Below are positions 20,431-62,856 of a stretch of DNA of 64,000 nt, one piece after another. Position 1 is the stretch's first letter; the number at the start of each line of letters is the position of its first letter. The stretch is taken from contig CAYRDC010000013.1 of NCBI GenBank assembly GCA_964422925.1, forward strand, positions 4,334-68,333, written 5' to 3'. The translations under genes were made by a program, and so were the position numbers. Source of the DNA: an uncultured Chitinophagales bacterium (lineage in GTDB: Bacteria; Bacteroidota; Bacteroidia; Chitinophagales; S012-47). The notes under the pieces were generated by a model, which saw only the letters and a program-made list of their open reading frames with translations, ran no database searches and was not told where the DNA came from.

Positions 20431-20484
20431 CCGCAGGAGATGAAATTAAGGTTCAGATAGCAGATTTTCGAGTGAATTCAAATT

Positions 20485-21240: not shown

Positions 21241-21241
21241 A

Positions 21242-23018: not shown

Positions 23019-24064
23019 AAAATCCGCGTCCCGGCCAGCTTGCTTTTTACGCGGCCGTAATCATAGCGTTGGTTACGGCTGCCGGACTGCTGATCGAATA
23101 TTACGCAACCGGACAGGTGCTGGCCTGGTGGATACCGGTCATTCTCCCTCTGGCTGTTTTGATTATTTCCTACGTGGTTTTTTTCCTGTTCCTGAAAGTT
23201 TTTATCTACCGGAAAGTAAAGTTGATTTACAAATACATTCATGAAACCAAAACAGGCCGCAACCCGGGCGAAAAGCCCGATTTACGCATGCCGGATATCA
23301 ATACTGTGGAAGCCGAAGTGAAGGAATGGGCTTCCAGCAAGCGGGAAGAATTGCAGCAACTCCGGGATACCGCCCGTTTCAGAAGGGAATTTATCGGCAA
23401 TGTTTCGCATGAACTGAAAACGCCCATTTTCAATATGCAGGGTTACCTCGAATCTTTGCTGGACGGAGGATTGCAGGATGAAAAAGTGAACCGGGATTTT
23501 TTGCGGAAAGCCCTGAAAAACCTGAACCGGATCGACCGTATTGTAAAAGACCTGGAAGTTATTTCTCAGCTCGAGGCAGGGGCCTTGGAACCGCGAAAAG
23601 TGCGGTTCAACATAACCAAACTGACGCGGGAAGTTTTTGAACTGCTGGAATATCAGGCCCGTTCGGGGCAGATTCAGCTGGAAATCAAGGAAGGCTGTGA
23701 CCAGCCGTTTTGGGTCATGGCAGACCCCGACCTGATCCGACAGGTGCTCGTGAATTTAATCATGAATTCAATTAACTATGCTACACCAGGCGAACCGGGT
23801 TTAACCAGGGTTGGGTTTTACGAAATGCACGATTATATCCTGGTGGAAGTTTCGGATCAGGGCATCGGCATCGCGCAGGAGCATTTACCGCGTTTGTTTG
23901 AACGGTTTTACCGAACGGATTCTGCCCGCTCGCGTAAAGTGGGAGGAACCGGACTCGGCCTGGCCATTGTGAAGCATATAGTGGAAGCGCACGGGCAAAC
24001 GGTGCATGTCCGGTCTTCGGAAGGAGTGGGTTCCACTTTTGGATTTACGCTGCAAAAAGCCTGA
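23015..24064 (+). CDS. PhoR-like sensor histidine kinase
   Basis: Two N-terminal TM segments, FIGNVSHELKTP H-box, FERFYRTD, GGTGLGLAIVKH. Confidence 0.9.
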   Translation: MKNPRPGQLAFYAAVIIALVTAAGLLIEYYATGQVLAWWIPVILPLAVLIISYVVFFLFLKVFIYRKVKLIYKYIHETKTGRNPGEKPDLRMPDINTVEAEVKEWASSKREELQQLRDTARFRREFIGNVSHELKTPIFNMQGYLESLLDGGLQDEKVNRDFLRKALKNLNRIDRIVKDLEVISQLEAGALEPRKVRFNITKLTREVFELLEYQARSGQIQLEIKEGCDQPFWVMADPDLIRQVLVNLIMNSINYATPGEPGLTRVGFYEMHDYILVEVSDQGIGIAQEHLPRLFERFYRTDSARSRKVGGTGLGLAIVKHIVEAHGQTVHVRSSEGVGSTFGFTLQKA

Positions 24065-24067
24065 ACG

Positions 24068-24905
24068 CTACCACCGCACCCGGCTGCCGGCATTAAGGGT
24101 GCTGCCGGCCCCGCTGTTGCGCCCCGCCAGAAATTTCGTAGCCAGTGTCTCCAGTTCCAGCACCCCGCCCAAGAAAACCTTTATGCCTCCGCCCGCCTGC
24201 AGGTAATATCCTTTAAACCCGCTCATCGTGGGGGCAAATTCCGCATTCACGTACAGAGCCATCCGGTTGTTGGGCAACAAGGTCAGAAATCCTTTCAACG
24301 CTCCGCCTGCCTGGAACGGAACGATGCCATTGGCCTCATTCCAGCGCACCAAAGCATCCATCCCGGCAAAACCCCAGATATTCCGGTGCACCGGAAAGGT
24401 AAACTGAAACTGCGTCCACCACAAAGACCCCTGGTATTCCAGGAAAGGATGGCTCCCGTCCCGGCCCTCCAGGTCGCGGGCTACCGGTATATAAAAAGTG
24501 CTCTGAACCGTAAACGGGGAATACCCCGGCCGGAGGGACCAGCGCAGCACCGGACCGATATGCGTAATGGCAGTACGGCTGTTGGCCGAATTGCCAAACC
24601 GGAAAATATTCCAAAAAGGAGCCGGCAGGGAATCCACCCGGACCGAACGGAACAGGCCTTCCACACCCACATTCCAGTTGGAACGGATCCCATAGGTGTA
24701 CCGGGCAAAAAGCGTAAGGTAATCAGACCGCACAGGCTGGGGTACCGCCTGGCCCTGTCCGTCAAAATAAGCAGTCTGCGTATACACATTCAGGAACAAG
24801 GATACTTCCGACATGCCCGCAAAGAGCGTTGCAGAAGGATCTATAAACAGCCAGTCTTCCGATTGAATGGAGGAAGACTCAATCCAGCTGTCTAGTTTTT
24901 TTTTT
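24068..24905 (-). CDS. Putative outer-membrane beta-barrel ORF lacking a signal peptide; probably expressed by a -1 shift from the DUF547 gene
   Basis: Amphipathic beta-strands and C-terminal Trp (…GSRVRW). The frame stays open upstream of Met 24814 through the A10 run to a TGA at 24922-24920, with no further ATG/GTG/TTG. Confidence 0.7.
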
Positions 24906-25617
24906 CGTTCAGACTCCAGTCATAGGTGTAATAAGTAATGGTAAAATCGGCTGGTATGGGATTATTCCGGTATTGGTTTATATACGACCTGATATCCATG
25001 CTTTGCGAGAGGAAATCGGCCTGGTACCATTCGAATATTTGCGAAATCTCTGCTTTTTTGCTTCCATAATCCAGCCGGATAAAGGAACTGCTATTGAGGG
25101 CTTTTCGGGTTCGCTGGTCCATTTGCGCGTTGAGATTTTCAGGCCGGAAGGCAAAATCAGCCAAAGGCGGGCATCCTTTTGCCCCGCAGACCAGCACAAA
25201 ATGCAACCTGGGGTCTTTGTACACGGCCAGCAGTTTTTGCTTTTCAATGATTTCAAGGCTTATCCTCTGACGGGCTACCGTATGGCTCTCGCTGGTGAAA
25301 ACATCGGGTATGTCGAGCGGGGATTTAACGGGATAATGCCCCACTATGGATTTGATCATGGTGAGGTTATAGGCATTGATCCAGAAAGCTTCGATTTCAG
25401 CGGCTGTCTTCCCCTGCAAATCAACGGCTGCCATCTCACCTATTAATTCATCCAGTTCATTGCGATGCTGTTTAACAGTCCGGTAATCCACCAGTCCGCC
25501 CGAAACATACTTTTGCAAAAAAGCATCGGCATCACTGAAAAAAGCATTAAGGTCCTGGGCATTCAGCGCGGAGAAAGACCACGCCAGCAGGCTTATCAGT
25601 AGAATGAATCGTTTCAT
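24892..25617 (-). CDS. DUF547 domain protein with signal peptide
   Basis: GLVDY, AFWINAYN, DPRLHFVLVCGAKGCPPL, SQIFEWY..DF, YDWSLN. Confidence 0.92.
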   Translation of the reverse strand: MKRFILLISLLAWSFSALNAQDLNAFFSDADAFLQKYVSGGLVDYRTVKQHRNELDELIGEMAAVDLQGKTAAEIEAFWINAYNLTMIKSIVGHYPVKSPLDIPDVFTSESHTVARQRISLEIIEKQKLLAVYKDPRLHFVLVCGAKGCPPLADFAFRPENLNAQMDQRTRKALNSSSFIRLDYGSKKAEISQIFEWYQADFLSQSMDIRSYINQYRNNPIPADFTITYYTYDWSLNEKKN

Positions 25618-25797
25618 AAGTTCCGGGATATAGATTCTGATTGGCTAATCTACTTCAAAAACAGGGCATTTATTAAAATCATTCATTAACTTGGATTATT
25701 CAGCGAATTTTTTTGGAAGCAATTTGCCTGAAATGTCCTGAATCCGACAGAATTTAGCTATAGGACATCTTTGTTTTGAACCTGAAAAAAGGGAATC

Positions 25798-27141
25798 ATG
25801 CATGTTGTCATTATCGGTAACGGCATTGCCGGAATTACGGCTGCCCGTTATATTCGCAAGTTAAGCGACCATGAGATCACTGTTATATCTGCTGAAACGG
25901 ACCACTTCTTTTCCCGCACAGCTTTGATGTATGTCTTTATGGGGCATATGCGTTTTGAAGACATCAAGCCCTATGAAGATTATTTCTGGAGGAAAAACCG
26001 CATTAACCTGTTGCGGGCCTGGGTGGAATCTGTTGACACGAATGTCAGGACAGTAACCACTTCCGCCAACCGGGTAATTCATTACGATGCCCTTTTGCTG
26101 GCCACCGGGTCGGCTTACAACAAATTCGGATGGCCGGGCCAGGACCTGGAAGGCGTACAGGGCCTGTACAGTTACCAGGATCTCGAACTGCTGGAACAAA
26201 ACGCAGCGCGGGCCCGCCAGGCCGTAATTGTGGGGGGCGGGCTGATCGGCATTGAACTGGGTGAAATGCTTCACTCAAGAGGCATTAAGGTTACTTTCCT
26301 GGTGCGTGAAAGCAGCTACTGGAACAACGTGCTGCCGCCTGAAGAATCGGAAATGGTAAGCCGCCATATCCTCGAACATCATTTCGACCTGCGGCTCGGG
26401 ACCGAATTAAAGGAAATCAAAGACGATGGCAGCGGGCACGTACAATCAGTGATTACCAGCCGGGGCGAAGAGATTCCCTGCCAGATCGTTGGCCTGACAG
26501 CCGGTGTCCACCCGAATATCACCCTGGCCCAATCAAGCGGAACCATTGAATGTGACCGGGGCATACTCGTGGACGAATACCTTTGCACCTCCGCCCCGGA
26601 TGTGTACGCTGCCGGTGATTGCGTTCAGCACCGGAATCCGCCTCCCGGCCACAAGCCCATCGAGCAGGTCTGGTACACGGGCAAGATCATGGGCCGGGCG
26701 GCAGCTCATACCATCTGTGGCACACCCAAAAAATATGAACCCGGCTTCTGGTTCAATTCAGCCAAATTTCTCGATATTGAATACCAGGTGTACGGAGAGG
26801 TGCCCAATACACCGGACACGGGCCTGTATTCGCTGTACTGGGAGCACCCCGATGGCAAAAAGAGCGTCCGGATCGTGTTTGACCCCTCAGACGGAAACAC
26901 GGTCCGCGGTTTTAACCTGATGGGAATCCGCTTCCGGCATGCCGTATGCGACCAATGGCTCCGGGAGAAATGGAATATCCATGAGGTAGTCCGCCACCTG
27001 GAAGCGGCCAATTTTGACCCGGAATTTTCCAAAAGGTACGAAAAGGAAATCCGGCAATTGCATAACCAGCGCTTCCCGGACCGGGCAGTAACCGGAGTGT
27101 CAAAAAAGTCTTGGAAATCAATGGTTTTCTCCTACCGATAA
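25798..27141 (+). CDS. NAD(P)/FAD-dependent oxidoreductase (pyridine nucleotide-disulfide family)
   Basis: GNGIAG, LATGS, VGGGLIGIE, TSAPDVYAAGD. Confidence 0.92.
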   Translation: MHVVIIGNGIAGITAARYIRKLSDHEITVISAETDHFFSRTALMYVFMGHMRFEDIKPYEDYFWRKNRINLLRAWVESVDTNVRTVTTSANRVIHYDALLLATGSAYNKFGWPGQDLEGVQGLYSYQDLELLEQNAARARQAVIVGGGLIGIELGEMLHSRGIKVTFLVRESSYWNNVLPPEESEMVSRHILEHHFDLRLGTELKEIKDDGSGHVQSVITSRGEEIPCQIVGLTAGVHPNITLAQSSGTIECDRGILVDEYLCTSAPDVYAAGDCVQHRNPPPGHKPIEQVWYTGKIMGRAAAHTICGTPKKYEPGFWFNSAKFLDIEYQVYGEVPNTPDTGLYSLYWEHPDGKKSVRIVFDPSDGNTVRGFNLMGIRFRHAVCDQWLREKWNIHEVVRHLEAANFDPEFSKRYEKEIRQLHNQRFPDRAVTGVSKKSWKSMVFSYR

Positions 27142-27153
27142 AATCCCTTGCTG

Positions 27154-28698
27154 ATGGAACAGTATGATATAAACATGTCTCTTACGCCTCCCTCGCGCAT
27201 GAGCGCTGGCGAACGGATCAGCCTGACGGTGGCCACCCTGGGTTTGCTGGGCATACTGGTCAGCTTCCTCGGAGCCGGACACAGCTACCTGATGCCTTTC
27301 CTGTTCGGGCTGGTGATGCTGGTGGTTGGCGGTGTATTGTACACTACCAAACGGCACCAGTATAAATCGCTGGCCGGGGTACTGTTCGCGGCCGGTATTA
27401 TTTCCTTGCTTTTCCTGAAGATTAAGCTTGAAATTCCGGCTGTTTACTTGGGTCCGGCAATTACGGTCTTTTTACTGGCAGGAGGGATTGCCTTTTTCTG
27501 GTTCCGTTTCGGAAGGGGCCCGGCCGGTATCCGGAATGATGGCATTTATCACAGCGAAGTCACCCGCAAAGGCGGTACTATCGCATGGTTTCTCGGCATC
27601 TTGTTTACTGGTTTTTACATTACCCTGTACTGGTTTCCTGAAAACCTCCACGGGCTGATTTACGCCACAGAACCCCTGTACCATGCCCTCACCGGGAAAT
27701 ATGCCATTTATTACGCGGAAGACGGATCAGTCACAGGGTATAACCAATGGTTCCTGTACGGACTTTTCTATACCCTGGCCGTCATCATAATGGGCACCCG
27801 GTTTATGTTCAAATACCGGCATAACCGTTACCAGCTGATCCGCACCGTTTCCGTCACCGTGGTCCAGTTGTTTATCGCCTTCCTGCTCCCTTCGTTCCTG
27901 GAAGCGCTGAACAACCAGGGCCAATCAGTGGAACCGTTTTATTTCAGCTATTTCTGGCCGCTCGACTATGACGCTTTGTTTCCGTCCTCGTTGTCTCATT
28001 ATGCCTATTCGCCCGGTATGTTTGGAAAATTCGTGTTTTACTGGATGATTATCGGGGCTTTTGTCGCGGTACCCGTTCTCACCTATTTGATTGGCAAGCG
28101 GTGGTATTGTTCATGGGTTTGCGGTTGTGGCGGGCTGGCAGAAACGGCAGGCGACCCGTTTCGCCATTTATCGGATAAATCGTTGAAAGCCTGGCGGATT
28201 GAGCGGATCAGCATTTATTCGGTATTGGTTCTCATTACCCTGATTACAGCACTGCTGCTGGTGAACTGGCGATGGCCGTTCATGGATGAGCAGCTGGCCC
28301 TGAGCCTGAAGAAAGGCTACGGGTTTGCCATCGGTTCCGTCTTCGCGGGGGTGGTAGGCACGGGCTTTTACCCTTTGCTGGGAAACCGGGTCTGGTGCCG
28401 GTTCGGATGCCCACAGGCGGCCATTCTCGGCATCATCCAGAAATACTTTTCCCGGTTCCGGATTACCACCAACGGGGCCCAGTGCATCAGCTGCGGCAAT
28501 TGCTCGACTTACTGCGAAATGGGCATAGACGTGAAATGGTACGCCCAGCGCGGGCAAAACATCGTCAGGGCCTCCTGCGTGGGCTGCGGGGTGTGTTCAG
28601 CGGTTTGCCCGAGGGGCGTGCTGAAGCTGGAAACCGGGCCTGTGGAAGGCCGCACCGAATTCACGCTGGACAGTGCAGCCATGAAATTCTACGCGTAG
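27154..28698 (+). CDS. Membrane polyferredoxin (NapH/NosR-like 4Fe-4S binding protein)
   Basis: About 10 TM segments; RWYCSWVCGCG, RVWCRFGCP, CISCGNCSTYCEM, CVGCGVCSAVCP. Confidence 0.9.
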   Translation: MEQYDINMSLTPPSRMSAGERISLTVATLGLLGILVSFLGAGHSYLMPFLFGLVMLVVGGVLYTTKRHQYKSLAGVLFAAGIISLLFLKIKLEIPAVYLGPAITVFLLAGGIAFFWFRFGRGPAGIRNDGIYHSEVTRKGGTIAWFLGILFTGFYITLYWFPENLHGLIYATEPLYHALTGKYAIYYAEDGSVTGYNQWFLYGLFYTLAVIIMGTRFMFKYRHNRYQLIRTVSVTVVQLFIAFLLPSFLEALNNQGQSVEPFYFSYFWPLDYDALFPSSLSHYAYSPGMFGKFVFYWMIIGAFVAVPVLTYLIGKRWYCSWVCGCGGLAETAGDPFRHLSDKSLKAWRIERISIYSVLVLITLITALLLVNWRWPFMDEQLALSLKKGYGFAIGSVFAGVVGTGFYPLLGNRVWCRFGCPQAAILGIIQKYFSRFRITTNGAQCISCGNCSTYCEMGIDVKWYAQRGQNIVRASCVGCGVCSAVCPRGVLKLETGPVEGRTEFTLDSAAMKFYA

Positions 28699-28700
28699 CC

Positions 28701-29390
28701 ATGAAGCCGAAAATAGTGGTCATTATCCCGGCCTTCAATGAAGAAAACGCGGTGGGTAAAGTGGTACGGGACATCCCCAAAGACTTTGTGGATGAAATCA
28801 TTGTAGTCAACAACAATTCCTCGGACAACACCGCTACTCAAGCCCGGAAAGCCGGGGCAACCGTTTTGGACGAACCCCGGCAGGGTTATGGTAATGCCTG
28901 CCTGAAAGGCCTGGAATATGCCGGCCAACTGAACCCTTTGCCGGACATCGTGGTTTTCCTCGATGCGGATTATTCGGATTATCCCGGAGAATTGCCGAAC
29001 GTGGTGCAACCCATCCTGGACGGGACCTGTGACCTCGTTATTGGCAGCCGGGCGCTTGGAAACCGGGAAAAAGGCGCTATGCTGCCCCACCAGGTATTCG
29101 GCAATAAACTGGCCACTACGCTGATCCACTGGTTTTACGGGGTGCGGTTTACAGACCTAGGGCCGTTCCGGGCCATACGCTATGAAAAACTGCAACTGCT
29201 GGGAATGAAAGACCGGACCTACGGCTGGACCGTGGAAATGCAGGTCAAAGCCGCCAAACACAAACTGAAATGCTGTGAAGTGCCGGTAACATACCGCAAA
29301 CGGATCGGCACTTCCAAGGTAACCGGGACCCTGAAAGGCACCCTCGGGGCAGGTTACAAAATCATTGGTACAATACTTCGTTATTTGTGA
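28701..29390 (+). CDS. GT2 glycosyltransferase (DPM/polyprenol-P-sugar synthase-like)
   Basis: IPAFNEE, GYGNAC, FLDADYS, IGSR, FTDLGPFRA; true start MKPK at 28701. Confidence 0.9.
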   Translation: MKPKIVVIIPAFNEENAVGKVVRDIPKDFVDEIIVVNNNSSDNTATQARKAGATVLDEPRQGYGNACLKGLEYAGQLNPLPDIVVFLDADYSDYPGELPNVVQPILDGTCDLVIGSRALGNREKGAMLPHQVFGNKLATTLIHWFYGVRFTDLGPFRAIRYEKLQLLGMKDRTYGWTVEMQVKAAKHKLKCCEVPVTYRKRIGTSKVTGTLKGTLGAGYKIIGTILRYL

Positions 29391-29400
29391 ATTTTGCCTT

Positions 29401-30876
29401 GTGAGCTCGATTATCCTGATTCTTTACATTTTAGCCATGACCGTTATCCTGCTGTACTGCCTGGCCGAACTGGGGCTGGGTTTTCAGTATTTCAGGGATA
29501 AAAGGCAGGCACTGAAACACCCCGAAACCACCCCGGCACTGAAGGAGTTTCCCATGGTAACCGTACAGCTGCCTTTGTACAACGAGTACTATGTGGTGGA
29601 GCGCCTGATAGATGCCATCATGGCCTTTGATTACCCGAAGGACAAACTTGAAGTGCAGGTGCTGGATGATTCAACGGATGAGTCGGTTGAAATAGCGGCC
29701 CGGAAAGTGGCTGAATACCGGGAAAAGGGGTATGACATCCGGCACATCAGGCGCGGGGAACGAACCGGGTTCAAGGCCGGTGCGTTGCAGTACGGGCTGG
29801 AGCAGGCAAACGGGGAATTCATCGCCATATTTGACGCGGATTTTATTCCCAAACCGGATTTCCTGAAACAAACGCTTCCGTGGTTCCGGGATGCAAAAAC
29901 CGGGATGGTGCAAACGCGCTGGGAGCACATCAATAAAAATTATTCGTTGCTCACGCGTCTGCAGGCCTTCGCGCTGGACCTGCACTTTACGGTGGAACAA
30001 AGGGGGCGGAACCATGCCGGGTTTTTCATCAATTTCAATGGAACGGCAGGCATCTGGCGCAAATCCTGCATTGAGAATGCCGGAGGCTGGAAAGCGGATA
30101 CTCTGACGGAGGACCTGGACTTAAGCTACCGGGCCCAGTTGAAAGGCTGGCGCTTTAAATACCTGGAGGGAGTGCCCAGCCCCGCTGAATTGCCCGTAGA
30201 AATGAACGCCCTGAAATCACAACAGTTCCGCTGGAACAAAGGCGGAGCCGAAACCGCCAAAAAAATGATCGGGAAAGTGTTCCGCAGCCGCCTGCCACTT
30301 AAAACCAAAATCTTTGCGGCTTCGCACCTGTTCAACAGCACCATCTACGTATTTATCCTTGTAGCCGCGCTGCTTAGCGTTCCGATGCTCATCATCAAGA
30401 ACATAGTGAGTACGGTTGATATTTATCGTTATATCTCCGGGTTCATTGTAGCCACCATTGCCATTGTCATTACATTCTTTATTTCCATCAGCTACAATGA
30501 AAAGTCCAGGCTAGGACGGCTGGTGAATTACGCCCTCATATTCCCGCTCTTCCTCTCGGTTTCCCTGGGTTTATCCCTGCATAACGGCCTCGCGGTGCTG
30601 AAAGGATATTTCGGGCAAAAAACGCCCTTTATCCGCACGCCTAAGTTCAACTTAGCCGATAAAAAAGCTGACTGGAAAGGGAATAAATACGTGAGGGCGC
30701 GCATCGGATGGCTGACCATACTGGAAGGAATTATTGCCATTTATTTTGTTGGAGGCATTCTGCTGGGGGTGCGGTACCATGATTATGGATTGATGCTTTT
30801 CCATGTGCTGGCGGCATTTGGCTTCGGCAGTGTTTTTTATTACTCACTTCGGCATACCTTTATGGCAAAAAAGTAA
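29401..30876 (+). CDS. Processive GT2 (cellulose synthase/CESA-like) glycosyltransferase
   Basis: DDSTD, KAG, FDADF, TED and QQFRW (QxxRW) motifs with TM segments; start estimated at GTG 29401. Confidence 0.9.
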   Translation: MSSIILILYILAMTVILLYCLAELGLGFQYFRDKRQALKHPETTPALKEFPMVTVQLPLYNEYYVVERLIDAIMAFDYPKDKLEVQVLDDSTDESVEIAARKVAEYREKGYDIRHIRRGERTGFKAGALQYGLEQANGEFIAIFDADFIPKPDFLKQTLPWFRDAKTGMVQTRWEHINKNYSLLTRLQAFALDLHFTVEQRGRNHAGFFINFNGTAGIWRKSCIENAGGWKADTLTEDLDLSYRAQLKGWRFKYLEGVPSPAELPVEMNALKSQQFRWNKGGAETAKKMIGKVFRSRLPLKTKIFAASHLFNSTIYVFILVAALLSVPMLIIKNIVSTVDIYRYISGFIVATIAIVITFFISISYNEKSRLGRLVNYALIFPLFLSVSLGLSLHNGLAVLKGYFGQKTPFIRTPKFNLADKKADWKGNKYVRARIGWLTILEGIIAIYFVGGILLGVRYHDYGLMLFHVLAAFGFGSVFYYSLRHTFMAKK

Positions 30877-32244
30877 TTGTCCGGTTTCATTGATAGCATC
30901 CATTCCGGCTGGCGGAAACTCTGGATCCCGCTTAACGTGTCCCTGCTGGCCTATCTCCTGATGGCTTATGGCACGGAACGCGGGGATGCCTGGCAGGTGC
31001 TCATTCAATACGGAATTCTATTCGGTTGCTTTACCTGGATTTTCAGGAAATCCGATGGCAAATCCATTCCGTTTCTGCTGCTTGCCGGCATCATGTTTCG
31101 CTTGTTGTTTTTAGTGCACACACCAGCCCTGTCGGATGATTATCTGCGCTATTTATGGGACGGGCACCTGGTTAATGCAGGCTTGAATCCCTATAACCTG
31201 CTTCCCTCGGAAGCTGCCGGTACAATGGCCAAAGAAGTGCCGGAGCAAATGCTCCGCTTGGTGCTTTCCAAAGATTATTATTCGGTTTATCCGCCATTCA
31301 GCCAGTCGGTGTTCGGGATGGCGGTATTCATTGCCCCCGGCAGCCTTGCAGGACAGATTCTTTTTTTGCGCCTTTTCATTTTACTGACCGAGGTCCTGTC
31401 GCTTGTGCTGATCACCCGTTTATTGGATCATTTTAACCAGCCCCGGAAAAAAGCCCTGCTGTACGCGCTGAACCCGCTGGTTATTATAGAATTAAGCGGC
31501 AACCTGCACATGGAAGCCCTGATGATCGGCTTTCTGTTGATGGCTGTTTGGTTATTGGTACTGGAAAAACCCTTTCCGGCCGGTCTGGCCTTTGCGCTGG
31601 CTGTTTCGGCCAAACTCATTCCCTTGATGTTCCTTCCAATCCTCCTGCTGAAACCGGGCCGGAAAAATGCACTCCTGTTTTTCTCAAGCGTTTTAGGGTT
31701 TACCGGTTTACTGACATTGCCTTTCTTTAACGCGGAAATGCTTCGCCACTTTTGGCAAAGCCTGCGGCTTTACTTTCACTTATTCGAATTCAACGGAAGT
31801 CTTTATTATGTCGTGCGTTGGATTGGATTCCAGGTAAAGGGCTATAATATCATTCACGAGGCTGGCCCGGTGTTTTCCTTGATCACCCTGTTGGCCGTTT
31901 GTATGATCAGTTTTGTCTGCCGTAAAAAAGGATGGCCGGTAATCTTTCAGGCCATGCTTTGGTCGCTGGCTTTGTATTTTCTGCTGGCCACTACGGTCAA
32001 TCCCTGGTACATCACCTCTATGGTTGCGCTGGGTCTTTTTTCGAACTATCGCTTTTACCTGGTATGGTCACTAACTGTCACTTTGAGTTATTTTGCCTAT
32101 GCCGGTGGGGGATTTCATGAGGCAACTTGGATACTATGGTTTGAATACCTGCCGGTATACGGATTCCTCCTTATGGACCTGATAAAACCCAAGCCGAATG
32201 TCCCGATTCAACGAATGGCAGCTTCGTCAGAGAGCCTCCATTAA
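30877..32244 (+). CDS. GT-C fold membrane glycosyltransferase (GT87/mannosyltransferase-like)
   Basis: LSDDYLRYLWDG, NPY, YPP, NPLVIIE..GNLHME, NPWY; many TM segments. Confidence 0.8.
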   Translation: MSGFIDSIHSGWRKLWIPLNVSLLAYLLMAYGTERGDAWQVLIQYGILFGCFTWIFRKSDGKSIPFLLLAGIMFRLLFLVHTPALSDDYLRYLWDGHLVNAGLNPYNLLPSEAAGTMAKEVPEQMLRLVLSKDYYSVYPPFSQSVFGMAVFIAPGSLAGQILFLRLFILLTEVLSLVLITRLLDHFNQPRKKALLYALNPLVIIELSGNLHMEALMIGFLLMAVWLLVLEKPFPAGLAFALAVSAKLIPLMFLPILLLKPGRKNALLFFSSVLGFTGLLTLPFFNAEMLRHFWQSLRLYFHLFEFNGSLYYVVRWIGFQVKGYNIIHEAGPVFSLITLLAVCMISFVCRKKGWPVIFQAMLWSLALYFLLATTVNPWYITSMVALGLFSNYRFYLVWSLTVTLSYFAYAGGGFHEATWILWFEYLPVYGFLLMDLIKPKPNVPIQRMAASSESLH

Positions 32245-32755
32245 AATTGCCCGCTTGCTGCCCATGCTTCAGCAGGGACAATCCATCCTGGACATAGGTA
32301 CAGGAAACGGTGCCGTATGCCAAATGCTAATGGAAAAGGGGTTCCATGTAACCCCTGCGGATATCCGGAACAAAAGCCGGTTTCCGAAAGTGAAGCCCGT
32401 CTTCTTCGATGGTGAAAACCTTCCTTTCGCGGAAAATTCCTTTGAGATCTGCCTGCTGCTGACCGTTTTGCACCATGCCCATAAGCCGGATCAATTGCTT
32501 CAGGAAGCGGTACGGGTATCTTCAACGTACCTGATTATCATTGAAGATGTATATACCAATGCCTTCCAGAAATACCTCACTTTTTTCATGGACAGCCTGG
32601 TGAATCTTGAAATAAAGAACCATCCGCACAATAACAGGACCTCCAAACAATGGGAACAGGCTTTTGACAGGTTAGGGTTGAAAATTATCCGGAAAGAGGA
32701 AAAAGCGTTTCTATGGTTTTTCCGGCAGGCAACTTATCTACTGAAAAAGCGATAA
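32198..32755 (+). CDS. Class I SAM-dependent methyltransferase
   Basis: ILDIGTGNG, LPFAENSFE, VLHH. Confidence 0.85.
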   Translation: MSRFNEWQLRQRASIKIARLLPMLQQGQSILDIGTGNGAVCQMLMEKGFHVTPADIRNKSRFPKVKPVFFDGENLPFAENSFEICLLLTVLHHAHKPDQLLQEAVRVSSTYLIIIEDVYTNAFQKYLTFFMDSLVNLEIKNHPHNNRTSKQWEQAFDRLGLKIIRKEEKAFLWFFRQATYLLKKR

Positions 32756-32758
32756 AAT

Positions 32759-32789
32759 GAAAACGGGCTACACCCGGCAGCCCGTTTTC
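32759..32789. terminator. Bidirectional intrinsic terminator
   Basis: GAAAACGGGCT-N9-AGCCCGTTTTC between convergent genes. Confidence 0.75.
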
Positions 32790-32811
32790 TATATCTGTCA
32801 ACTGTATTTAC

Positions 32812-34434
32812 TTAGTCGGCAATTTTGAATTCTACCCTCCGGTTCATGAAATGCTCGTTGCTCTTATGAGCATCTTTCACCAGCGGGTTGGATTCTCCCA
32901 GGTATTTTATATTAAACCTGGACTTGTCAATTCCATAGTTGTCAACCAAGAACTGAACGGCATTTTCAGCCCGTTTTTTGGAAAGTTCCAGGTTATATTC
33001 TTCGGTATACCGGGTATCGGCATTACCGATTACATCCACTTTCATTTTCGGATAGCGCTGAAGGATGCTGGCAATTTGTGCCATGTTTTCATAATCTTCA
33101 GCACGGATATCGGCTTTATCAGTATTAAAGTGGATGGAAGGCAGATACCAACCGCGGGCGTTTTCACGGATCAGTTCCTTTACCCTTTCTTCCGACAGGC
33201 CTTCGGGCCATTGGGTTTTGCAATCCACAATGGGATAGGAAGGTGAGCTGAACGGTTCGGGATCGTCATAATCCGGGCAACCGTCACCGTCACTGTCTTT
33301 GGTACGTCCTTTGGCGTCCACAGGAGCTCCTTCCGGAGTATTCAGTTCTTCATCCCACAGATCGGGCACACCGTCATTGTCGCCATCGTCAAAGTTGGTC
33401 TTCTTTTCAAGATAATCCAGATTTTGGTATACATAATCCAGTGGGTTGATCAACCATTCAGGTTCAGTAGCTTTTTTCCCTAGGTTAATGCCTAAACCAA
33501 TACTGGTATAATGATAGGCATCATTGTTGGATGTAAGCGTTGGTTTATTGGTAGCCGTTTGGGGCTCTTCCCAACGCTGTCCATCCAGAAGGTCGTCATC
33601 CACTAACCCTATTTTGTGCTCAAAACTTAGTACAAAACGTTTGGACAGCCGGAAATCAGCTCCAACACCTGCCGAAAGGACGATGTCAGAACTATGCCCC
33701 TGGAACCGGTAACGGTCCGGGTTGATTTCAGCAGGAGTTTCATAAGTGCCATCCCAGATATTATGTACATAATCCCACTGGGTTGATTTAGTTTTATAAT
33801 TATCAGATTTGACCGGTGAGGATTCATAATCGTACATATCTCCGTTGGAATCCAACTGATCCAGGAAAGTATCATACCACATACCTCCAACGCCCACCAG
33901 GAAATATGGGCTTACGGAGATTTTACTGGAATGGAACCTGATGTTATTGAGATTCAGAATACCGTCCACCGAAAGTTCATTCATCTTAGCTTTAAAATTA
34001 TGGTAGACGAAGCCGCTATGGTTCACTTCATCATAGTAATCCACGGCCGGATCGTTTTGACCGTTTAAGGCTGCATTATTGGCAATCCCATAGCTGGGCA
34101 TCCAGTTGGCCCCATAGGCATTGCCCTTGAGATATTGCAGACGAAGTGAGAATGAATACCCAAGTGCTTTACGTACGGTAAGGCCGTATCCATAACCAAA
34201 TTTTGACCTTACATCACCAAAAACACGCAGCATTCCAGTGTTAACACCTACCTGCCACATGGATCTGGGTTTGGCCGGATAAGGATCTTCTCCTTTTAAC
34301 CATTTTTCATGCTGTGGTTTCCTGAAATCAGGAATCAGATCCGGATCAGGACCGGGCCGCTCGGGCAACTGGGCAAGTGCTACCGTGCTCAGTAAAACAG
34401 CCAACGACAGTAAAAGGTAGTTTCTTTTCAACAT
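32812..34434 (-). CDS. OmpA family outer-membrane protein with thrombospondin type-3 repeats
   Basis: Signal peptide, barrel region, DGDNDGVPD/DSDGDGCPD repeats, YNLELSKKRA...NRRVEF. Confidence 0.92.
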   Translation of the reverse strand: MLKRNYLLLSLAVLLSTVALAQLPERPGPDPDLIPDFRKPQHEKWLKGEDPYPAKPRSMWQVGVNTGMLRVFGDVRSKFGYGYGLTVRKALGYSFSLRLQYLKGNAYGANWMPSYGIANNAALNGQNDPAVDYYDEVNHSGFVYHNFKAKMNELSVDGILNLNNIRFHSSKISVSPYFLVGVGGMWYDTFLDQLDSNGDMYDYESSPVKSDNYKTKSTQWDYVHNIWDGTYETPAEINPDRYRFQGHSSDIVLSAGVGADFRLSKRFVLSFEHKIGLVDDDLLDGQRWEEPQTATNKPTLTSNNDAYHYTSIGLGINLGKKATEPEWLINPLDYVYQNLDYLEKKTNFDDGDNDGVPDLWDEELNTPEGAPVDAKGRTKDSDGDGCPDYDDPEPFSSPSYPIVDCKTQWPEGLSEERVKELIRENARGWYLPSIHFNTDKADIRAEDYENMAQIASILQRYPKMKVDVIGNADTRYTEEYNLELSKKRAENAVQFLVDNYGIDKSRFNIKYLGESNPLVKDAHKSNEHFMNRRVEFKIAD

Positions 34435-34764
34435 ATTGGTAGATTTAGTTTCAGGAAAAGTAAGCGCAATTTAAGTAAATTCCAATAATTTGCCACAACT
34501 GACAAAAATAAGTTTCTTTCACATTTATTCCAACAAGCTGATCGCCTATTCTTTTACCCTCTCACATCGGGTAAGCTAAACGGGGGTTTTGCCACCAAAA
34601 GAGTCCAATCAATCCTTTCGGAAGGATAAATATAATGTTTTCGGAAAACTTAGCAATGGATTTTACAAAATTTTCTGCCTTATTCCTAAAATTTCCCGGA
34701 ATAGAACAGCCGTTTTCAGGCACAATACTCCAAAAAACAGTACCGGAAGGGTTTTATACCCAGG

Positions 34765-35421
34765 TTATGAGACTGCACGGGCTAAAAACCGGTTCAGGGG
34801 GACCATATGTTGAAATACCTTCAGGCAATACGGTACAAAATCCTTATTCAGACTGATTTTCTCATCAAAAGGATGAACCATAATAAAACTCTTGTGCCGC
34901 AGGTATTTTATCATTGGATGATCAACCGAATAGCCATAAGGAGCTTTTTTCAGCGTTTCGCCCTGCAATGAGCCGAAATACTTGATGAAATCCTCTGATT
35001 GTACGATTTCAAGGAATTCCTCCCGACAATAGTCAATTTCCTGGCGGATGGCTGACAGCATGGCCTTATCCGGGGCATAAACTCCTCCGGCCAGGAAAGC
35101 CGTTCCCGGTTCCAGATGGATATAGTATCCCGGACCGGGTGATTTGCGCCCGCCAACGGCTATATGACTGCCAAAATGTTCTTTATAGGGCTTTTTATCC
35201 TTGCTGAACCGGATATCACGGTATATCCGGAAAATGCAATCCTTCACCGGAAGGCCAATAATACCCGGTTCAAATACCTGTATGCCTTCGATTAACCGGC
35301 CGGTTAACTGCTCAAAATCCATTAAGGCATCTTTATACCTTAACTTATTGACATTGAACCAATCCCGTTTATTGTTTTTCTTCAGATCCTTCAAAAATTG
35401 AAGGGTGCTTTTCCGGATCAT
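34765..35421 (-). CDS. DUF2461 (TIGR02453) family protein
   Basis: FLKDLKKNNKRDWF, FRIYRDIRFSKDKKPYK, GYYIHLEP. Confidence 0.9.
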   Translation of the reverse strand: MIRKSTLQFLKDLKKNNKRDWFNVNKLRYKDALMDFEQLTGRLIEGIQVFEPGIIGLPVKDCIFRIYRDIRFSKDKKPYKEHFGSHIAVGGRKSPGPGYYIHLEPGTAFLAGGVYAPDKAMLSAIRQEIDYCREEFLEIVQSEDFIKYFGSLQGETLKKAPYGYSVDHPMIKYLRHKSFIMVHPFDEKISLNKDFVPYCLKVFQHMVPLNRFLARAVS

Positions 35422-35472
35422 ACACAGACTATAAATGATTAAAAGTAAATTCGCCCATTAATCTTTTGCAAC

Positions 35473-35826
35473 ATGACCGTTACGGATAAAAGTAAACAAC
35501 CCCAGGCGGAAATCAGCATCCGCCTGTATCTGGACCAGGAAAAATTACCTGAAAAAATGGAATGGCGGGCCACAGATGCCCCTTTTGAGGGATACAAGGA
35601 ATGCAAGGCATTTCTACTCTCAATATTTGATCCAGAAGACCGCAATACCCTCCGTGTTGATATTTGGAACAAAGACATGCGCCTTGATGAAATGTACCAG
35701 TTTTTCTATCAAACCCTATTATCGATGGCCGATACATTTGAACGGGCTACCAATCATCAGGAAGCTGCCGGGGAATTAAGGGAATTCGGCACTTCTTTCG
35801 GGAAAAAACTGGGTATCGTTCGCTGA
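35473..35826 (+). CDS. gldC: Gliding motility protein GldC
   Basis: LD...PEKMEWRA.D, KAFLLS.FD, LRVDIW.KDM, MADTFERAT. Confidence 0.88.
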   Translation: MTVTDKSKQPQAEISIRLYLDQEKLPEKMEWRATDAPFEGYKECKAFLLSIFDPEDRNTLRVDIWNKDMRLDEMYQFFYQTLLSMADTFERATNHQEAAGELREFGTSFGKKLGIVR

Positions 35827-35830
35827 AACC

Positions 35831-36808
35831 CTAACAGCATCCCCCTCCGTCATAATGCCAGGTAGACGGGGAAATAAATATATTATCCCGTTCAAGCCCG
35901 GCCAGGGCCGCTGCCGTTTTATCGCATACCGATAAGGGCTGATTTTGCATCAATACATGCCCCTTCCCGTCATCGTAAAATTCATTATCACCAAAATAAA
36001 TAGCAGTCTTCCCGGTGAAAATGCAGGGCCCGTCAGGTGGAATAGGTTCTTTAATGGCGCATACTTCCACACTTTCAATGTATATCAACCGATCGACCGC
36101 GTAGTGTTTTGGATCCAATACCCGATAGGGTCTCCGGGCCCGGACCTCAATGGTTCCAAAACCTGTTTCAGCCAGCAATTGAAGGTATTGGTTCAGGGGA
36201 ATGGCCCCGCTCAGGCACAAGGCCCGCAAGCGCTCGTCAGACCGCACATGATCCGGGATGTAATCATCACAAACCGGGTCAGACAAAACCAGCCGGCCAT
36301 GGGGCTTCAAAACACGGTACATTTCTTCCAGGGCCTTTTTCAGGTCGGTTTCCTTGAAAATATTAAACAGGCAATTTTGCGCGGCCACATCCACGGATTT
36401 ATCTTCTAAAGGGATTTCCAGGGCTGATCCTTTTATGAGTTGAACAAAGTCTCGGTGAAACCAATCGTTTTCCTGTTCGGCCAGCTTCAGGTTCTCGTGG
36501 CATTTTTCAAGCATTTCATCCACGATATCTGCTCCGACTACCCCATGTGGTTGCCGGCTGAAATAAGCAAACTGAAGCAATTCCATGCCTCCTCCAACCC
36601 CGACATAGAGAATGCGGGGATTACCCGTAAGGTCGCGCGGATTCACGGTGGAGCCACAGCCGTAGTTCATTTCTTTCATGATTTCCGGGACATTCAGCCC
36701 GGGGAAATGCCACATCGGGGTGGTAGTGCAGCAAAGGCCGACATCAGGGGTTTCAGCAGCCTGGCGGTATACATCTGCGGTGATTTTCAGGTAACTATCC
36801 TTTTTCAT
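35831..36808 (-). CDS. arsM: Arsenite S-adenosylmethionine methyltransferase, arsenosugar-associated
   Basis: Conserved Cys motifs GLCC, YGCG, NCLFN, LCLSGA, SVCDKT and C-terminal GGGCC; in an operon with arsS. Confidence 0.85.
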   Translation of the reverse strand: MKKDSYLKITADVYRQAAETPDVGLCCTTTPMWHFPGLNVPEIMKEMNYGCGSTVNPRDLTGNPRILYVGVGGGMELLQFAYFSRQPHGVVGADIVDEMLEKCHENLKLAEQENDWFHRDFVQLIKGSALEIPLEDKSVDVAAQNCLFNIFKETDLKKALEEMYRVLKPHGRLVLSDPVCDDYIPDHVRSDERLRALCLSGAIPLNQYLQLLAETGFGTIEVRARRPYRVLDPKHYAVDRLIYIESVEVCAIKEPIPPDGPCIFTGKTAIYFGDNEFYDDGKGHVLMQNQPLSVCDKTAAALAGLERDNIFISPSTWHYDGGGCC

Positions 36809-36821
36809 AAATCAGTTCTTT

Positions 36822-37445
36822 TCAGGCAGTCCGGTCTGCCCGTTTTTGTTCAAATCCGTTATTCACCAGGTCTTCATAGGTGTCAATATCTATTAACCGG
36901 GGCAAGAGATGGATTGTCAGGTTCAACCGGGCAGCCTGTGCCAGCGTTTGTTCCAGGACCCGCTCTGTGCCCCAGTCGATTTTGCGAAACAGGCCGGGAT
37001 ACGGCTTTTTCGAACCGATCAGGTAATAGCCGCCATCATTGGCCGGGCCGATCACCAAATCGTTCGAGTCGAGCGCCCGGAAAGCATCGGTCAGGATTAC
37101 CGCGTTCAGGTCAGGGGTGTCGCTGCCTATCAAAACGGCTTTCTTCATGCCATCTTCCAGCACCTCCTGCATAGCTTTTTTCATTTTATGCCCGAGATCC
37201 CCGTTTGACTGAAGATATTTTTCATACACCAGGTTATCGAACAGGTCGCGATCATCAATAAACCGGTCGTAAAAAACCATTTTCCGGTAATTCAAACCTT
37301 CGGTATTGATCACCAATTCTTCCAACAGGTGCTGATAAATAGTCAACGCCCGCTCCAACCCGACTTCTTCCGCCAGGCGGGTTTTTACCAATCCCTTCAG
37401 GGGATTTCTCACAAAAATGATAAGGGCTTCTTCTCTCCAAAACAT
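36822..37445 (-). CDS. TIGR04282/DUF2064 family arsenosugar-associated glycosyltransferase-like protein
   Basis: FVRNP..G.VKTRLA, Q...DLG.KM, IGSDTP, GPANDGGYYLIG, DIDTYEDL. Confidence 0.88.
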   Translation of the reverse strand: MFWREEALIIFVRNPLKGLVKTRLAEEVGLERALTIYQHLLEELVINTEGLNYRKMVFYDRFIDDRDLFDNLVYEKYLQSNGDLGHKMKKAMQEVLEDGMKKAVLIGSDTPDLNAVILTDAFRALDSNDLVIGPANDGGYYLIGSKKPYPGLFRKIDWGTERVLEQTLAQAARLNLTIHLLPRLIDIDTYEDLVNNGFEQKRADRTA

Positions 37446-37455
37446 AATCTGAACA

Positions 37456-38508
37456 TTATTCAGCCAGGACCCCGCCACAAGATGAACCGGCTCCGGCTGT
37501 GCATCCGTAGCAATGCTGGTTCACGACAATGGTCCTTCCGGCCAGCTTTTTTTCATCAAAAGCGCTGATATGCCGGGGCGCTTTTGCCTCCAGCCCTATC
37601 TGCAGCATTTGATTAAAATCACAGTCGTATAAATAGCCATCCCACCCCACGGAAATCATCGTCCGGCACATGACATTTACCGCAGCTACCGGATTGAATG
37701 AATTGACCAGTTTTTCCATGTATCTTTCGTAATTGCCTGACAGCAGCAGGTATTCCAGAAAACGGCTGATGGGCAGGTTGGTAATTGTGTACAGGGAATT
37801 GAATGTAATACCATAATCCCTTGCCAGATTTCGCTTAAACTGAGCTTCCAGTTCTTTTTGGGAAGGCGGCAAAAATGCGCCCGAAGGATTGTACACCAGA
37901 TTCAGGACCAACTCACTGCCATTGGCACCATACCCCACGGCATTAAGCATTTGCAGGGCTTTGATCGATTTCTCAAAAACCCCATCGCCCCGCTGGCTGT
38001 CCGTTTTCCGTTTGGTATAGTAAGGAAGGGAAGAAATCACTTCCACCTGGTGGTCGCGGAAAAATTCCGGAAGGTCGTTGTATTTTGGATTGGCCAGTAT
38101 AATGGTGAGGTTGCTGCGCACCATAATATGCGCGTTTCTTTTCTTCAGTTCCGTGACAAACCAGCGGAAATCCGGGTTCATTTCCGGTGCGCCTCCGGTA
38201 AGGTCAACCGTATGAATGCGGCTGTTTTCCAGCGCCTCCAGACATTGTTGCATGGTTTCACGCGTCATGATTTCCTTCCGGTCAGGGCCGGCATCCACGT
38301 GGCAATGACTGCAGATCTGATTGCACATATAGCCCATATTGATCTGCATGGTATCCACGGACTGGGCTTTCAGGGGAAACAGTTTGTAATCGTGCAGTGT
38401 GGCCTCAAAAGATGGAATTTCCACCTTTTCTTCTTCCTGGCCGTTTAACACCTTCAACTGGACCCTGAAATCGGCCAAATCACTCCTTCTTGCATGTAAT
38501 GATTTCAT
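37456..38508 (-). CDS. arsS: Arsenosugar biosynthesis radical SAM protein ArsS (Cys form)
   Basis: CNQICSHC (CxxxCxxC), DLTGGAPE, YDCDFNQ, HCYGCTAGAGSSCGG. Confidence 0.92.
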   Translation of the reverse strand: MKSLHARRSDLADFRVQLKVLNGQEEEKVEIPSFEATLHDYKLFPLKAQSVDTMQINMGYMCNQICSHCHVDAGPDRKEIMTRETMQQCLEALENSRIHTVDLTGGAPEMNPDFRWFVTELKKRNAHIMVRSNLTIILANPKYNDLPEFFRDHQVEVISSLPYYTKRKTDSQRGDGVFEKSIKALQMLNAVGYGANGSELVLNLVYNPSGAFLPPSQKELEAQFKRNLARDYGITFNSLYTITNLPISRFLEYLLLSGNYERYMEKLVNSFNPVAAVNVMCRTMISVGWDGYLYDCDFNQMLQIGLEAKAPRHISAFDEKKLAGRTIVVNQHCYGCTAGAGSSCGGVLAE

Positions 38509-38873
38509 GAAAACTCCCGGTGTTCCCTGCGAGGCATTCGCATACTCAGTTGTTCAACCTTGTTCATCATCTGGATGCCATGGATCAGGGAAGCTCCGCC
38601 CCGTATGGCCGCGGCCACATGCACTGCCTCCATCATCTGTGTCTCATCAGCCCCTTTTTCCAGACTTGCTTCCGTATATGCCTCAATACAATAAGGACAT
38701 TGAATGGCATGGGCTACTGCCAGGGCAATCAGGGCTTTTTCCCTTTCGGTCAAAGCGCCTCCCTTGAAAACGCTATTGTAATAACCAAAAAACTTTTTGG
38801 CAAGTTCTGGTTCATACTCTCCGATATCTCCGAATTTGTTCAGATCGGCAGGGTCGTAATACGTGTTGCTCAT
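38505..38873 (-). CDS. Arsenosugar-associated peroxidase-like CMD/AhpD protein
   Basis: GALTEREKALIALAV...QCPYCI, EAVHVAAAIRGGA. Confidence 0.88.
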   Translation of the reverse strand: MSNTYYDPADLNKFGDIGEYEPELAKKFFGYYNSVFKGGALTEREKALIALAVAHAIQCPYCIEAYTEASLEKGADETQMMEAVHVAAAIRGGASLIHGIQMMNKVEQLSMRMPRREHREFS

Positions 38874-38972
38874 GATGTCTGATTTTTTACGGGTTAGGAT
38901 GTCTGGAATGTCTGTAACGGACCTTATTATGCAACAAATCTATGCGCTTTCGGTTCCTTACAAAACCAAACC

Positions 38973-39005
38973 AAAAAAAAGCCGCTCTGAAATTGAGCAG
39001 CTTTT
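38973..39005 (-). terminator. Intrinsic terminator after the 2000-aa T9SS gene
   Basis: AAAAGCCGCTC-N7-GAGCAGCTTTT with a U-tract on the minus strand. Confidence 0.65.
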
Positions 39006-45031: not shown

Positions 45032-45114
45032 AATGTATAATGGTAATAACTCGGCTTTGCGAAGTTACAAAATCAACAGCAGATATGAAATCATTGGCTT
45101 TATTTTAACATTCC

Positions 45115-45143: not shown

Positions 45144-45167
45144 CTCTTCCAATGAATATAGAAAAAC

Positions 45168-62833: not shown

Positions 62834-62856
62834 GCGGTCGATTCAAAATAAATTAT

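Follow-up and report, generated by a model that had tools for sequence, protein, structure and literature searches.

An arsenosugar operon and a candidate envelope glycosylation module at a split locus of an uncultured Chitinophagales bacterium

The arsenosugar locus described here lies at 24068-38873 of a 64,000-nt window, the whole stretch of DNA that was analysed, from the genome of an uncultured Chitinophagales bacterium (2.72 Mb in 64 contigs, 96% complete). Genes were called from the open reading frame (ORF) listing together with Pfam and NCBIfam scans at curated cut-offs, and they form two units, a four-gene arsenosugar core and a six-gene operon, the latter divergent from a gene for an exported DUF547 protein. 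The core operon (35831-38873, minus strand) had been read in an initial annotation of this DNA as carboxymuconolactone decarboxylase (CMD) peroxidase-arsS-TIGR04282-arsM, and this reading is borne out, all four proteins scoring above their NCBIfam cut-offs. They are an AhpD/CMD-like, peroxidase-like protein with a CxxC motif at C59/C62 (TIGR04169; 38505-38873; 191.5 bits against a cut-off of 120), the radical S-adenosylmethionine (SAM) enzyme ArsS (TIGR04167; 37456-38508; 463.8 against 300), a TIGR04282/DUF2064 protein of the CofC-like nucleotidyltransferase fold (36822-37478; 199 against 134), and an arsenosugar-type arsenite methyltransferase, ArsM (NF038099; 35831-36808; 553.7 against 400). 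ArsS displays a CX3CX2C motif at C62/C66/C69, its three cysteines being invariant in 9 aligned sequences, and a Cys-rich C-terminus; its nearest relatives, with 63-66% identity, are found in a Reichenbachiellaceae metagenome-assembled genome (MAG), in Cesiribacter and in Pontibacter. Together with the CHU_C and GldC proteins of the window, these relatives suggest Cytophagales-like Bacteroidota. Of the five families that make up the NCBIfam arsenosugar neighbourhood (TIGR04169, TIGR04167, TIGR04282, TIGR04283 and NF038099), four are present here in one operon. The fifth, the TIGR04283 glycosyltransferase, was not found anywhere in the 96% complete genome, where the best score was 53.3 bits against a cut-off of 182, and the sole purine nucleoside phosphorylase of the genome is encoded on another contig. 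Apart from the missing TIGR04283, the core belongs to the known arsenosugar gene set.

The six-gene operon (25798-32755, plus strand) is as tightly packed as first described, with spacings between neighbours of +6 to -47 nt, and its genes lie at or near the positions first assigned to them. The first gene encodes an NAD(P)H flavoprotein of the ferredoxin/rubredoxin-reductase type (Pyr_redox_2; 25798-27141), which has no N-terminal redox cysteine, and the second a NapH-like membrane polyferredoxin (27148-28698) with about 8 hydrophobic segments, two CX3C(P)-type motifs and two 4Fe-4S motifs, the cysteine motifs being invariant in 17 orthologues. The two CX3C(P)-type motifs and the two C-terminal 4Fe-4S motifs are shared with the NapH/MauN polyferredoxins (TIGR02163); unlike these, the window protein pairs with an NAD(P)H flavoprotein and not with NapG, and NapH has four hydrophobic segments. 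With 67.9 bits against a TIGR02163 cut-off of 213 it is not a member of the NapH family, and a sequence search of solved structures gave matches to the Fe-S motifs only, with no solved relative. The third gene encodes a soluble 229-aa family 2 glycosyltransferase resembling AglJ and dolichyl-phosphomannose (DPM) synthase, hereafter GT2a (28701-29390), whose true start is M103 of the listed ORF; it matches PF00535 with 78.6 bits, and the acidic DxD-type motif formed by D88, D90 and D93 is invariant in 17 sequences. There follow a membrane GT2 of the processive type (BcsA/PgaC-like; GT2b, 29365-30876), a GT-C glycosyltransferase of family GT87 (30877-32244; PF09594, 32.2 bits against a cut-off of 25) with about 9-10 transmembrane segments, for which a sequence search of solved structures yielded no relative, and a small class I SAM methyltransferase (32198-32755). 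A bidirectional terminator-like hairpin of 13 pairs (32759-32789) closes the operon. The NCBIfam arsenosugar naming is not carried by the flavoprotein, the polyferredoxin, GT2a, GT87 or DUF547, and the attached module is unnamed in NCBIfam.

The DUF547 gene (24892-25617, minus strand; PF04784, 71.8 bits) points away from the flavoprotein gene, from which it is separated by 180 bp. Its product contains the invariant CxxxxCP motif (C144-x4-C149-P150), and a signal peptide or lipobox was recognized in all nine cluster-linked homologues. The DUF547 model is of high quality (predicted local distance difference test, pLDDT, 90.6); compared with the PDB by Foldseek it gave no match at E <= 0.001, and the best VIA-align result, Z 5.5, was with helical repeat proteins only. 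A second ORF of 248 aa (24068-24904, minus strand) follows in the -1 frame relative to DUF547. It has no Pfam match and no signal peptide, and its model (12 strands, pLDDT 76.4) matches the COG4313 outer-membrane channel 4rl8 (Foldseek E 1.6e-8, TMq 0.65) and also FapF. The initial annotation had treated the two as a single DUF547/barrel gene; both parts are indeed present, but as two ORFs in different frames, which could be joined only by a slip on a run of ten adenines.

The two groups of genes stand together in other organisms. Searches were made in a phylum sample of 301 genomes, the identical set being used for every profile, and in 18 of these, from at least 8 families, polyferredoxin and ArsS are 0.5-23 kb apart on one contig. 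In one locus from another family (L022), genes for the phosphorylase, flavoprotein, polyferredoxin, GT2a, GT2b, GT87, DUF547, TIGR04169, ArsS, TIGR04282 and ArsM follow one another on one strand, nearly without gaps. Such single co-directional arrays also occur in Cesiribacter sp. SM1 (L050), in Autumnicola patrickiae F188 (L116) and in a Flavobacteriales MAG (L125, 12 genes). The locus of Pontibacter sp. FD36 has the ArsS core with the glycosyltransferase trio only. Among 16 of the 18 loci of the phylum sample mentioned above, chosen for a polyferredoxin-ArsS distance of <=16 kb and so biased as a count, gene orders vary and clustering is constant. The two sets may be interleaved, as in L029 (flavoprotein-polyferredoxin-TIGR04169-ArsS-GT2a) and in L035, which reads flavoprotein::polyferredoxin fusion-TIGR04283::TIGR04282-DUF547-TIGR04169-ArsS-GT2a. 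A minimal array, TIGR04169-ArsS-TIGR04282-flavoprotein-polyferredoxin, is found in L030, L032 and L033 and also in a Candidatus Didemnitutus MAG (L099); L031 and L034 keep this order with inserted genes. In L035-L038 the separate flavoprotein is replaced by a YpdA/thioredoxin-reductase-like flavoprotein domain fused to the polyferredoxin, giving proteins of 614-826 aa (L035:6528-9008, L037:7455-9935, L038:10153-11997), and L035 also encodes the 464-aa TIGR04283::TIGR04282 fusion (L035:9010-10404). An Atlas look-up listed Pyr_redox_2::polyferredoxin fusions among structural look-alikes in three other phyla, which is noted as a lead only.

The association was also followed from each of its partners. 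In 20 loci taken round the polyferredoxin of close relatives and compared with the window proteins, the flavoprotein adjoins the polyferredoxin in all 20; 11 of the loci also hold GT2a and GT2b, and 3, L022 among them, hold ArsS. The flavoprotein was tracked as a neighbour of the polyferredoxin rather than by a genome profile of its own, and of 36 loci with a polyferredoxin of the orthologue type it adjoins the latter in 35. Stand-alone flavoprotein-polyferredoxin pairs (L018, L023, L045-L048) have unrelated genes as neighbours and give no functional clue. When 80 ArsS-centred loci from named public genomes, many of them on short contigs, were scored for neighbours within <=10 kb, TIGR04169 was present in 74, TIGR04282 in 47, ArsM in 27, TIGR04283 and purine nucleoside phosphorylase in 26 each, DUF547 in 21, and the flavoprotein or polyferredoxin in 7, as was any member of the glycosyltransferase trio.

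Gene-by-gene distributions in the phylum sample separate the parts of the module. The polyferredoxin is present in 61 of the 301 genomes, as 50 orthologue-type copies and 11 more distant ones inside frames of 780-1060 aa. Set against ArsS, it gives 48 genomes with both, 13 with polyferredoxin only, 62 with ArsS only and 178 with neither, a naive odds ratio of 10.6. GT2a, found in 63 genomes, has almost the same distribution as the polyferredoxin (60 both, 3 GT2a only, 1 polyferredoxin only, 237 neither), and this match persists where the two genes sit on different contigs; a complex prediction for the two proteins returned no answer (score 0.00) and bears neither way. GT87, counted as present at E <= 1e-30, occurs in 47 genomes, of which 46 carry GT2a and 43 the polyferredoxin. 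The initial proposal that a lipid-phosphate-sugar synthase is paired here with a GT-C enzyme is well supported by this near-complete overlap and by the position of both genes in one operon. All 61 polyferredoxin genomes carry TIGR04282, according to a table checked by hand. By class, the polyferredoxin is found in 47 of the 52 genomes with ArsS and GT2b, in 1 of 58 with ArsS only, in 13 of 93 with GT2b only and in none of the 98 with neither. A distribution of the operon independent of arsS had been named in the initial annotation as what would refute the link. The polyferredoxin and GT2a, and to a large extent GT87, are not independent of ArsS, and in several families they share one array with all the other genes; GT2b and the methyltransferase do not follow this pattern.

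The same dependence is visible at closer range. Within family f27, ArsS, polyferredoxin, GT2a, GT2b and TIGR04282 are all confined to one and the same set of 11 genomes out of 22 (in one genus, 1 of 11); within f25 a single genome of 16 has all the genes, in one locus; and within f44 the same 4 of 7 genomes carry ArsS, polyferredoxin and GT2a, with GT2b in 7 of 7. Such co-variation inside families supports a real coupling. Among 41 close relatives, for which the cross-table was made by hand, a strong polyferredoxin match was found in 21 and ArsS in 16 (14 both, 7 polyferredoxin only, 2 ArsS only, 18 neither), and both ArsS-only genomes are incomplete (88% and 75%).

Two of the six genes do not belong to this coupled set, of which the initial annotation had made them part. 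GT2b is present in 145 of the 301 genomes and is independent of ArsS (52 both, 93 GT2b only, 58 ArsS only, 98 neither; odds ratio 0.94), although 60 of the 61 polyferredoxin genomes carry it. Away from the polyferredoxin it is a single orthologue that follows lptE in a MiaB-SPOR-sigma54 activator-LptE-GT2b-TPR block: LptE was confirmed by Pfam beside GT2b in all three loci scanned that lack a local module, and L130, L136 and L139 share their gene order with six more, the six by gene size. This setting suggests that the lptE-linked GT2b may have an outer-membrane or lipopolysaccharide-related role. The methyltransferase is lineage-specific. Among the 20 close-relative loci, tblastn matches to it were obtained only in those of the window's own family, f1 (L009-L011, L013 and L014; L012 ends before that position), and a second set of 20 loci gave no tblastn match.

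Taken together, these data make it very likely that the two parts, the arsenosugar core and the second gene group, are functionally linked. Judged from gene content, the second part, consisting of 25798-32755 and the divergent DUF547/barrel region at 24068-25617, would on balance be an envelope glycosylation module. The reading favoured here, with a probability of roughly 0.55, is that a conserved gene set of two parts stands split in this window, and that a lipid-carrier glycosylation route takes the ArsS product to the envelope.

Several observations weigh against this reading. The first concerns the window itself: the initial annotation had placed the two units 3 kb apart, and the distance, 3.07 kb, is correct, but the interval is filled by three genes unrelated to the set, for an OmpA-family protein (32812-34434, minus strand), DUF2461 (34765-35421, minus strand) and GldC (35473-35826, plus strand), the same three that are found there throughout family f1. 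Together with the terminator-like hairpins between the units, these genes indicate separate transcription units here. No RNA run covering 25700-35600 was found, and a metatranscriptome of the same sample gave nothing on 24000-39000. In the distributions, the 62 of 110 ArsS genomes that lack the polyferredoxin and the independence of GT2b from ArsS count on the same side, as do the 13 of 61 polyferredoxin genomes without ArsS, all of them 99-100% complete; in the five of these ArsS-free genomes that were tested, arsenosugar ArsM and TIGR04169 were also absent at their cut-offs. Four family f1 genomes hold the six-gene operon without ArsS, two of them with a TIGR04282-like gene in the locus (L011, L013), and TIGR04282 stays beside the module in some further ArsS-free genomes (G308, G300, G212). 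The module, it seems, can also run without arsenic. Moreover, because the sampled genomes are kin, the odds ratios overstate independence.

Similar reservations apply to two enzymes on which the favoured reading leans. GT2a falls below the equivalog cut-offs, both for AglJ (TIGR04182, 125.2 bits against 325) and for the halophile dolichyl-phosphate hexose transferase (65 against 375), and in a PDB sequence search it matched GpgS with 35 bits over its N-terminal half and the Pyrococcus furiosus DPM synthase with 30 bits over its full length. In sequence GT2a thus resembles glucosyl-3-phosphoglycerate synthase no less than DPM synthase, and its acceptor could be a small molecule. TIGR04282, for its part, is above cut-off in 181 of the 301 genomes against 110 for ArsS, and in one large family in 57 of 63 against 36 of 63. 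As it occurs much more widely than ArsS, it need not have an arsenic-containing substrate, and its name as an arsenosugar glycosyltransferase probably overstates the tie to arsenic.

What is known of related pathways gives the favoured reading its chemical outline. In Synechocystis sp. PCC 6803, ArsM and ArsS have been reported to produce 5'-deoxy-5'-dimethylarsinoyl-adenosine (Xue et al. 2019; Cheng et al. 2021, as cited in PMC12159101). The present locus resembles that pathway in its ArsS and arsenosugar-type ArsM, both above cut-offs; the later steps are undefined there, whereas the core here is accompanied by a redox pair, three glycosyltransferases, DUF547 and an outer-membrane barrel, in a genome with no TIGR04283. 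In the literature consulted, the later arsenosugar and arsenolipid steps, namely base removal, sugar activation and attachment to glycerol, lipids or isoprenoids, stand without a named gene, and a literature search, with supplements outside its scope, found no paper linking ArsS or arsenosugars with a polyferredoxin, a DPM-like GT2, a GT-C enzyme or DUF547.

A parallel is offered by the methylthioxylose capping of mycobacteria, for which the primary paper on MtxS and MtxT is reportedly Angala 2017. There, according to the account in PMC8780516, MtxS (Rv0539) forms decaprenyl-phospho-methylthioxylose, and the GT-C enzyme MtxT (Rv0541c) transfers it to lipoarabinomannan. The logic proposed for the present locus would be alike, with a SAM-derived 5-deoxy-5-substituted pentofuranose placed on a polyprenyl phosphate by a GT2 and passed to an envelope glycan by a GT-C enzyme; the substituent is sulfur in mycobacteria and would be arsenic here, and the two systems are likened by description, not by the sequences of Rv0539 and Rv0541c. 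To our knowledge, no flavoprotein-polyferredoxin pair is part of the mycobacterial methylthioxylose system. Algae provide a second point of comparison, since they have been described as making phytyl and other isoprenoyl 2-O-methyl arsenoribosides (PMC10456119; PMC7345539), by a proposed route that, in the outline given in PMC10456119, involves a methylase, a nucleosidase and an isoprenoid-directed transferase, without gene assignment. For isoprenoid-bound arsenoribosides of this kind the locus offers what may be matching functions, a lipid-directed glycosyltransferase, a methyltransferase and a reductase; the algal phytyl arsenosugars are, however, ethers of a C20 alcohol in eukaryotes, and a bacterial counterpart is hypothetical.

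On these analogies a stepwise chemistry can be proposed, tentatively and with the odds somewhat against the whole of it. ArsM would make dimethylarsenite and ArsS would join it to the 5'-deoxyadenosyl group of SAM, steps that are established in other organisms. Removal of adenine by phosphorolysis would then yield arsenoribose-1-phosphate, the purine nucleoside phosphorylase being in the cluster in relatives and elsewhere in this genome, and TIGR04282 would convert this intermediate to a nucleotide sugar. GT2a, as an inverting, soluble DPM-like GT2, would load the sugar on polyprenyl phosphate, and on the outer face of the inner membrane GT87 would pass it on to an acceptor in the envelope, which the lptE-linked GT2b may help to build. 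The flavoprotein and the polyferredoxin may form one reductase, in which electrons from NAD(P)H would be relayed by flavin adenine dinucleotide (FAD) and two 4Fe-4S clusters and reach an intermediate bound to the membrane; its most likely target would be the intermediate on the lipid carrier, reduced at its arsenic, its sugar or its isoprenoid. Beyond the inner membrane, the product may be handled by the exported DUF547 protein, through its dithiol motif, and by the outer-membrane barrel. For the later arsenosugar steps, the candidate set would accordingly comprise the nucleoside phosphorylase, TIGR04282, the DPM-like GT2, the GT-C enzyme, the flavoprotein-polyferredoxin reductase and the exported DUF547 protein, and the counts given above tell apart the members that track ArsS, those that track each other and those that are housekeeping, as well as the occurrences of the module free of arsenic genes.

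Of the other explanations, the one that survives best, if rather improbable in our estimate, is that the module is an arsenic-independent system for an envelope glycolipid or glycan, which is found near ars genes through shared stress regulation, for instance under phosphate limitation with arsenate influx, and has no intermediates in common with them. It accommodates the module in genomes without ArsS, ArsM and TIGR04169, and the housekeeping-like GT2b beside lptE. A link to phosphate would agree with the PhoB/PhoR-like two-component pair that flanks the locus, with the polyphosphate kinase that occupies the place of the ars genes in an ArsS-free member of family f1 (L011), and with the approximately 30-fold rise of isoprenoyl arsenolipids at low phosphate described for algae in PMC7345539. 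Shared regulation fails, however, to explain the packed arrays in which both sets are interleaved (L029, L035), or why the polyferredoxin is found in 47/52 of the genomes with ArsS and GT2b against 13/93 of those with GT2b only.

It might also be that the flavoprotein-polyferredoxin pair serves only as a dedicated low-potential electron donor for ArsS or the AhpD-like protein, or as an arsenate or methylarsenate reductase, and that the glycosyltransferases are unrelated neighbours. Radical SAM enzymes require a reductant, and the minimal arrays (L030-L033, L099) contain no glycosyltransferase. The initial annotation had likewise supposed that the pair feeds radical SAM chemistry or reduces As(V), which fits the distributions poorly: with 62 of 110 ArsS genomes lacking the pair and 13 of 61 pair genomes lacking ArsS, a donor to ArsS only is disfavoured. 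The pair tracks GT2a instead, its distribution almost equalling that of GT2a even where the genes are unlinked, and the minimal-array genomes (G130, G240, G252, G284 and G288) carry GT2a elsewhere, so that this explanation seems quite improbable. We infer that the flavoprotein-polyferredoxin reductase is obligately partnered with GT2a and GT87 rather than with ArsS; a membrane reductase tied in this way, by its distribution, to two paired glycosyltransferases is apparently undescribed. Chance adjacency of two unrelated operons, which the 3-kb separation, the opposite strands and the intervening housekeeping genes in this window might suggest, is contradicted by the synteny, fusion and co-occurrence counts and has hardly any likelihood left.

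The junction between DUF547 and the barrel deserves separate consideration. DUF547 ends in ...LNEKKN* inside an A10 run (24896-24905, minus strand), and the barrel frame is open from this run, its first ATG being at 24814; the invariant residues P23 and G30 lie upstream of that ATG. A barrel homologue in L010 is without any start codon, and in L011 and L012 the frame opens two bases into the A run, while a stand-alone homologue (L044:5183-6085) has its own start and a signal peptide. Wherever a barrel follows, the run is long, A10 in the window and A9 in four related genomes (5/5), one of which (L020, 57% complete) has an extra frame break inside the barrel and is counted for the A run only. 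Among 36 DUF547 homologues in the stored loci, nine A's end the gene in the 4 with a barrel, and the longest run is <=6 in the other 32, among them a genome of the same family without a barrel, which has A5. A contig from a second study spans 24843-25696 without gaps or mismatches, so that the A10 run is no quirk of this one assembly. Directly after the run a hairpin is predicted (z -2.47), and 3 of 200 shuffles fold as well.

Recoding at A-rich runs is known from dnaX frameshifting and from transcriptional slippage on A9 tracts. The likeness here consists in the A9-10 run, the -1 frame ORF without a start of its own and the conservation across genomes; the predicted product differs in joining an exported domain to an outer-membrane barrel. 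The A10 run is a candidate site of programmed -1 frameshifting or transcriptional slippage, which would yield free DUF547 and a DUF547::barrel fusion, the latter being exported by the DUF547 signal peptide. If real, such recoding would be a compact way to obtain soluble and outer-membrane-anchored forms of one protein. The results also give DUF547, a domain of unknown function reaching into plants, a first functional context.

Extending the favoured reading, it could be speculated that the module builds a lipid-linked arsenoriboside, that is, a polyprenyl-phospho- or isoprenoid-bound 5-dimethylarsinoyl-ribose, as a bacterial counterpart of the algal phytyl 2-O-methyl arsenosugars, and that this is displayed on an outer-membrane glycoconjugate. 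The flavoprotein-polyferredoxin pair would then be a new membrane reductase for the lipid-linked organoarsenical or its isoprenoid, the methyltransferase a ribose O-methylase, and DUF547 a periplasmic dithiol handler of trivalent arsenic, present both free and slippage-fused to its own outer-membrane channel. This fuller scheme is rather improbable.

On the far side of the barrel ORF, and convergent on it, lie genes for a PhoB-like response regulator (22338-23018, plus strand; TIGR02154, 226 bits, below the cut-off of 296) and a PhoR/PnpS-like histidine kinase (23015-24064, plus strand; PnpS, 245 bits, below the cut-off of 400). This pair is kept by the locus in family f1, and copies of 30-36% identity are found near the clusters L029 and L037; it is a possible regulator of the locus. 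An exopolyphosphatase is encoded at 14373-15305 of the window. Together with the two-component pair and the polyphosphate kinase of L011, it gives a hint that phosphate status is involved. Immediately upstream of the regulator and kinase genes, at 18205-22162, the window encodes a permease resembling K-Cl cotransporters, an iron/manganese transporter of the VIT1 family and a tandem universal stress protein.

At least half of the sampled words of 25700-35600 are contained in four DNA runs, which come from two studies and are labelled as microbial mat and hydrothermal vent metagenomes; one of the four may be the source of this DNA. Apparent breaks inside arsS in metagenome contigs of 90% likeness were rejected as rearrangements and are read as the arsS genes of other organisms. 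Upstream of the ars operon, beyond a terminator-like hairpin at 38977-39005, 39029-49799 encodes two very large proteins, of 2000 and 1543 aa, in which PKD and Ig_7 repeats are combined with a CHU_C signal for type IX secretion; apart from these two, the remaining window consists of housekeeping genes. In the last 2 kb (62001-64000) the G+C content is 0.33, against about 0.45-0.55 elsewhere, and an ORF there weakly matches the PglX-type methyltransferase of bacteriophage exclusion (BREX) systems; this segment may be foreign DNA.

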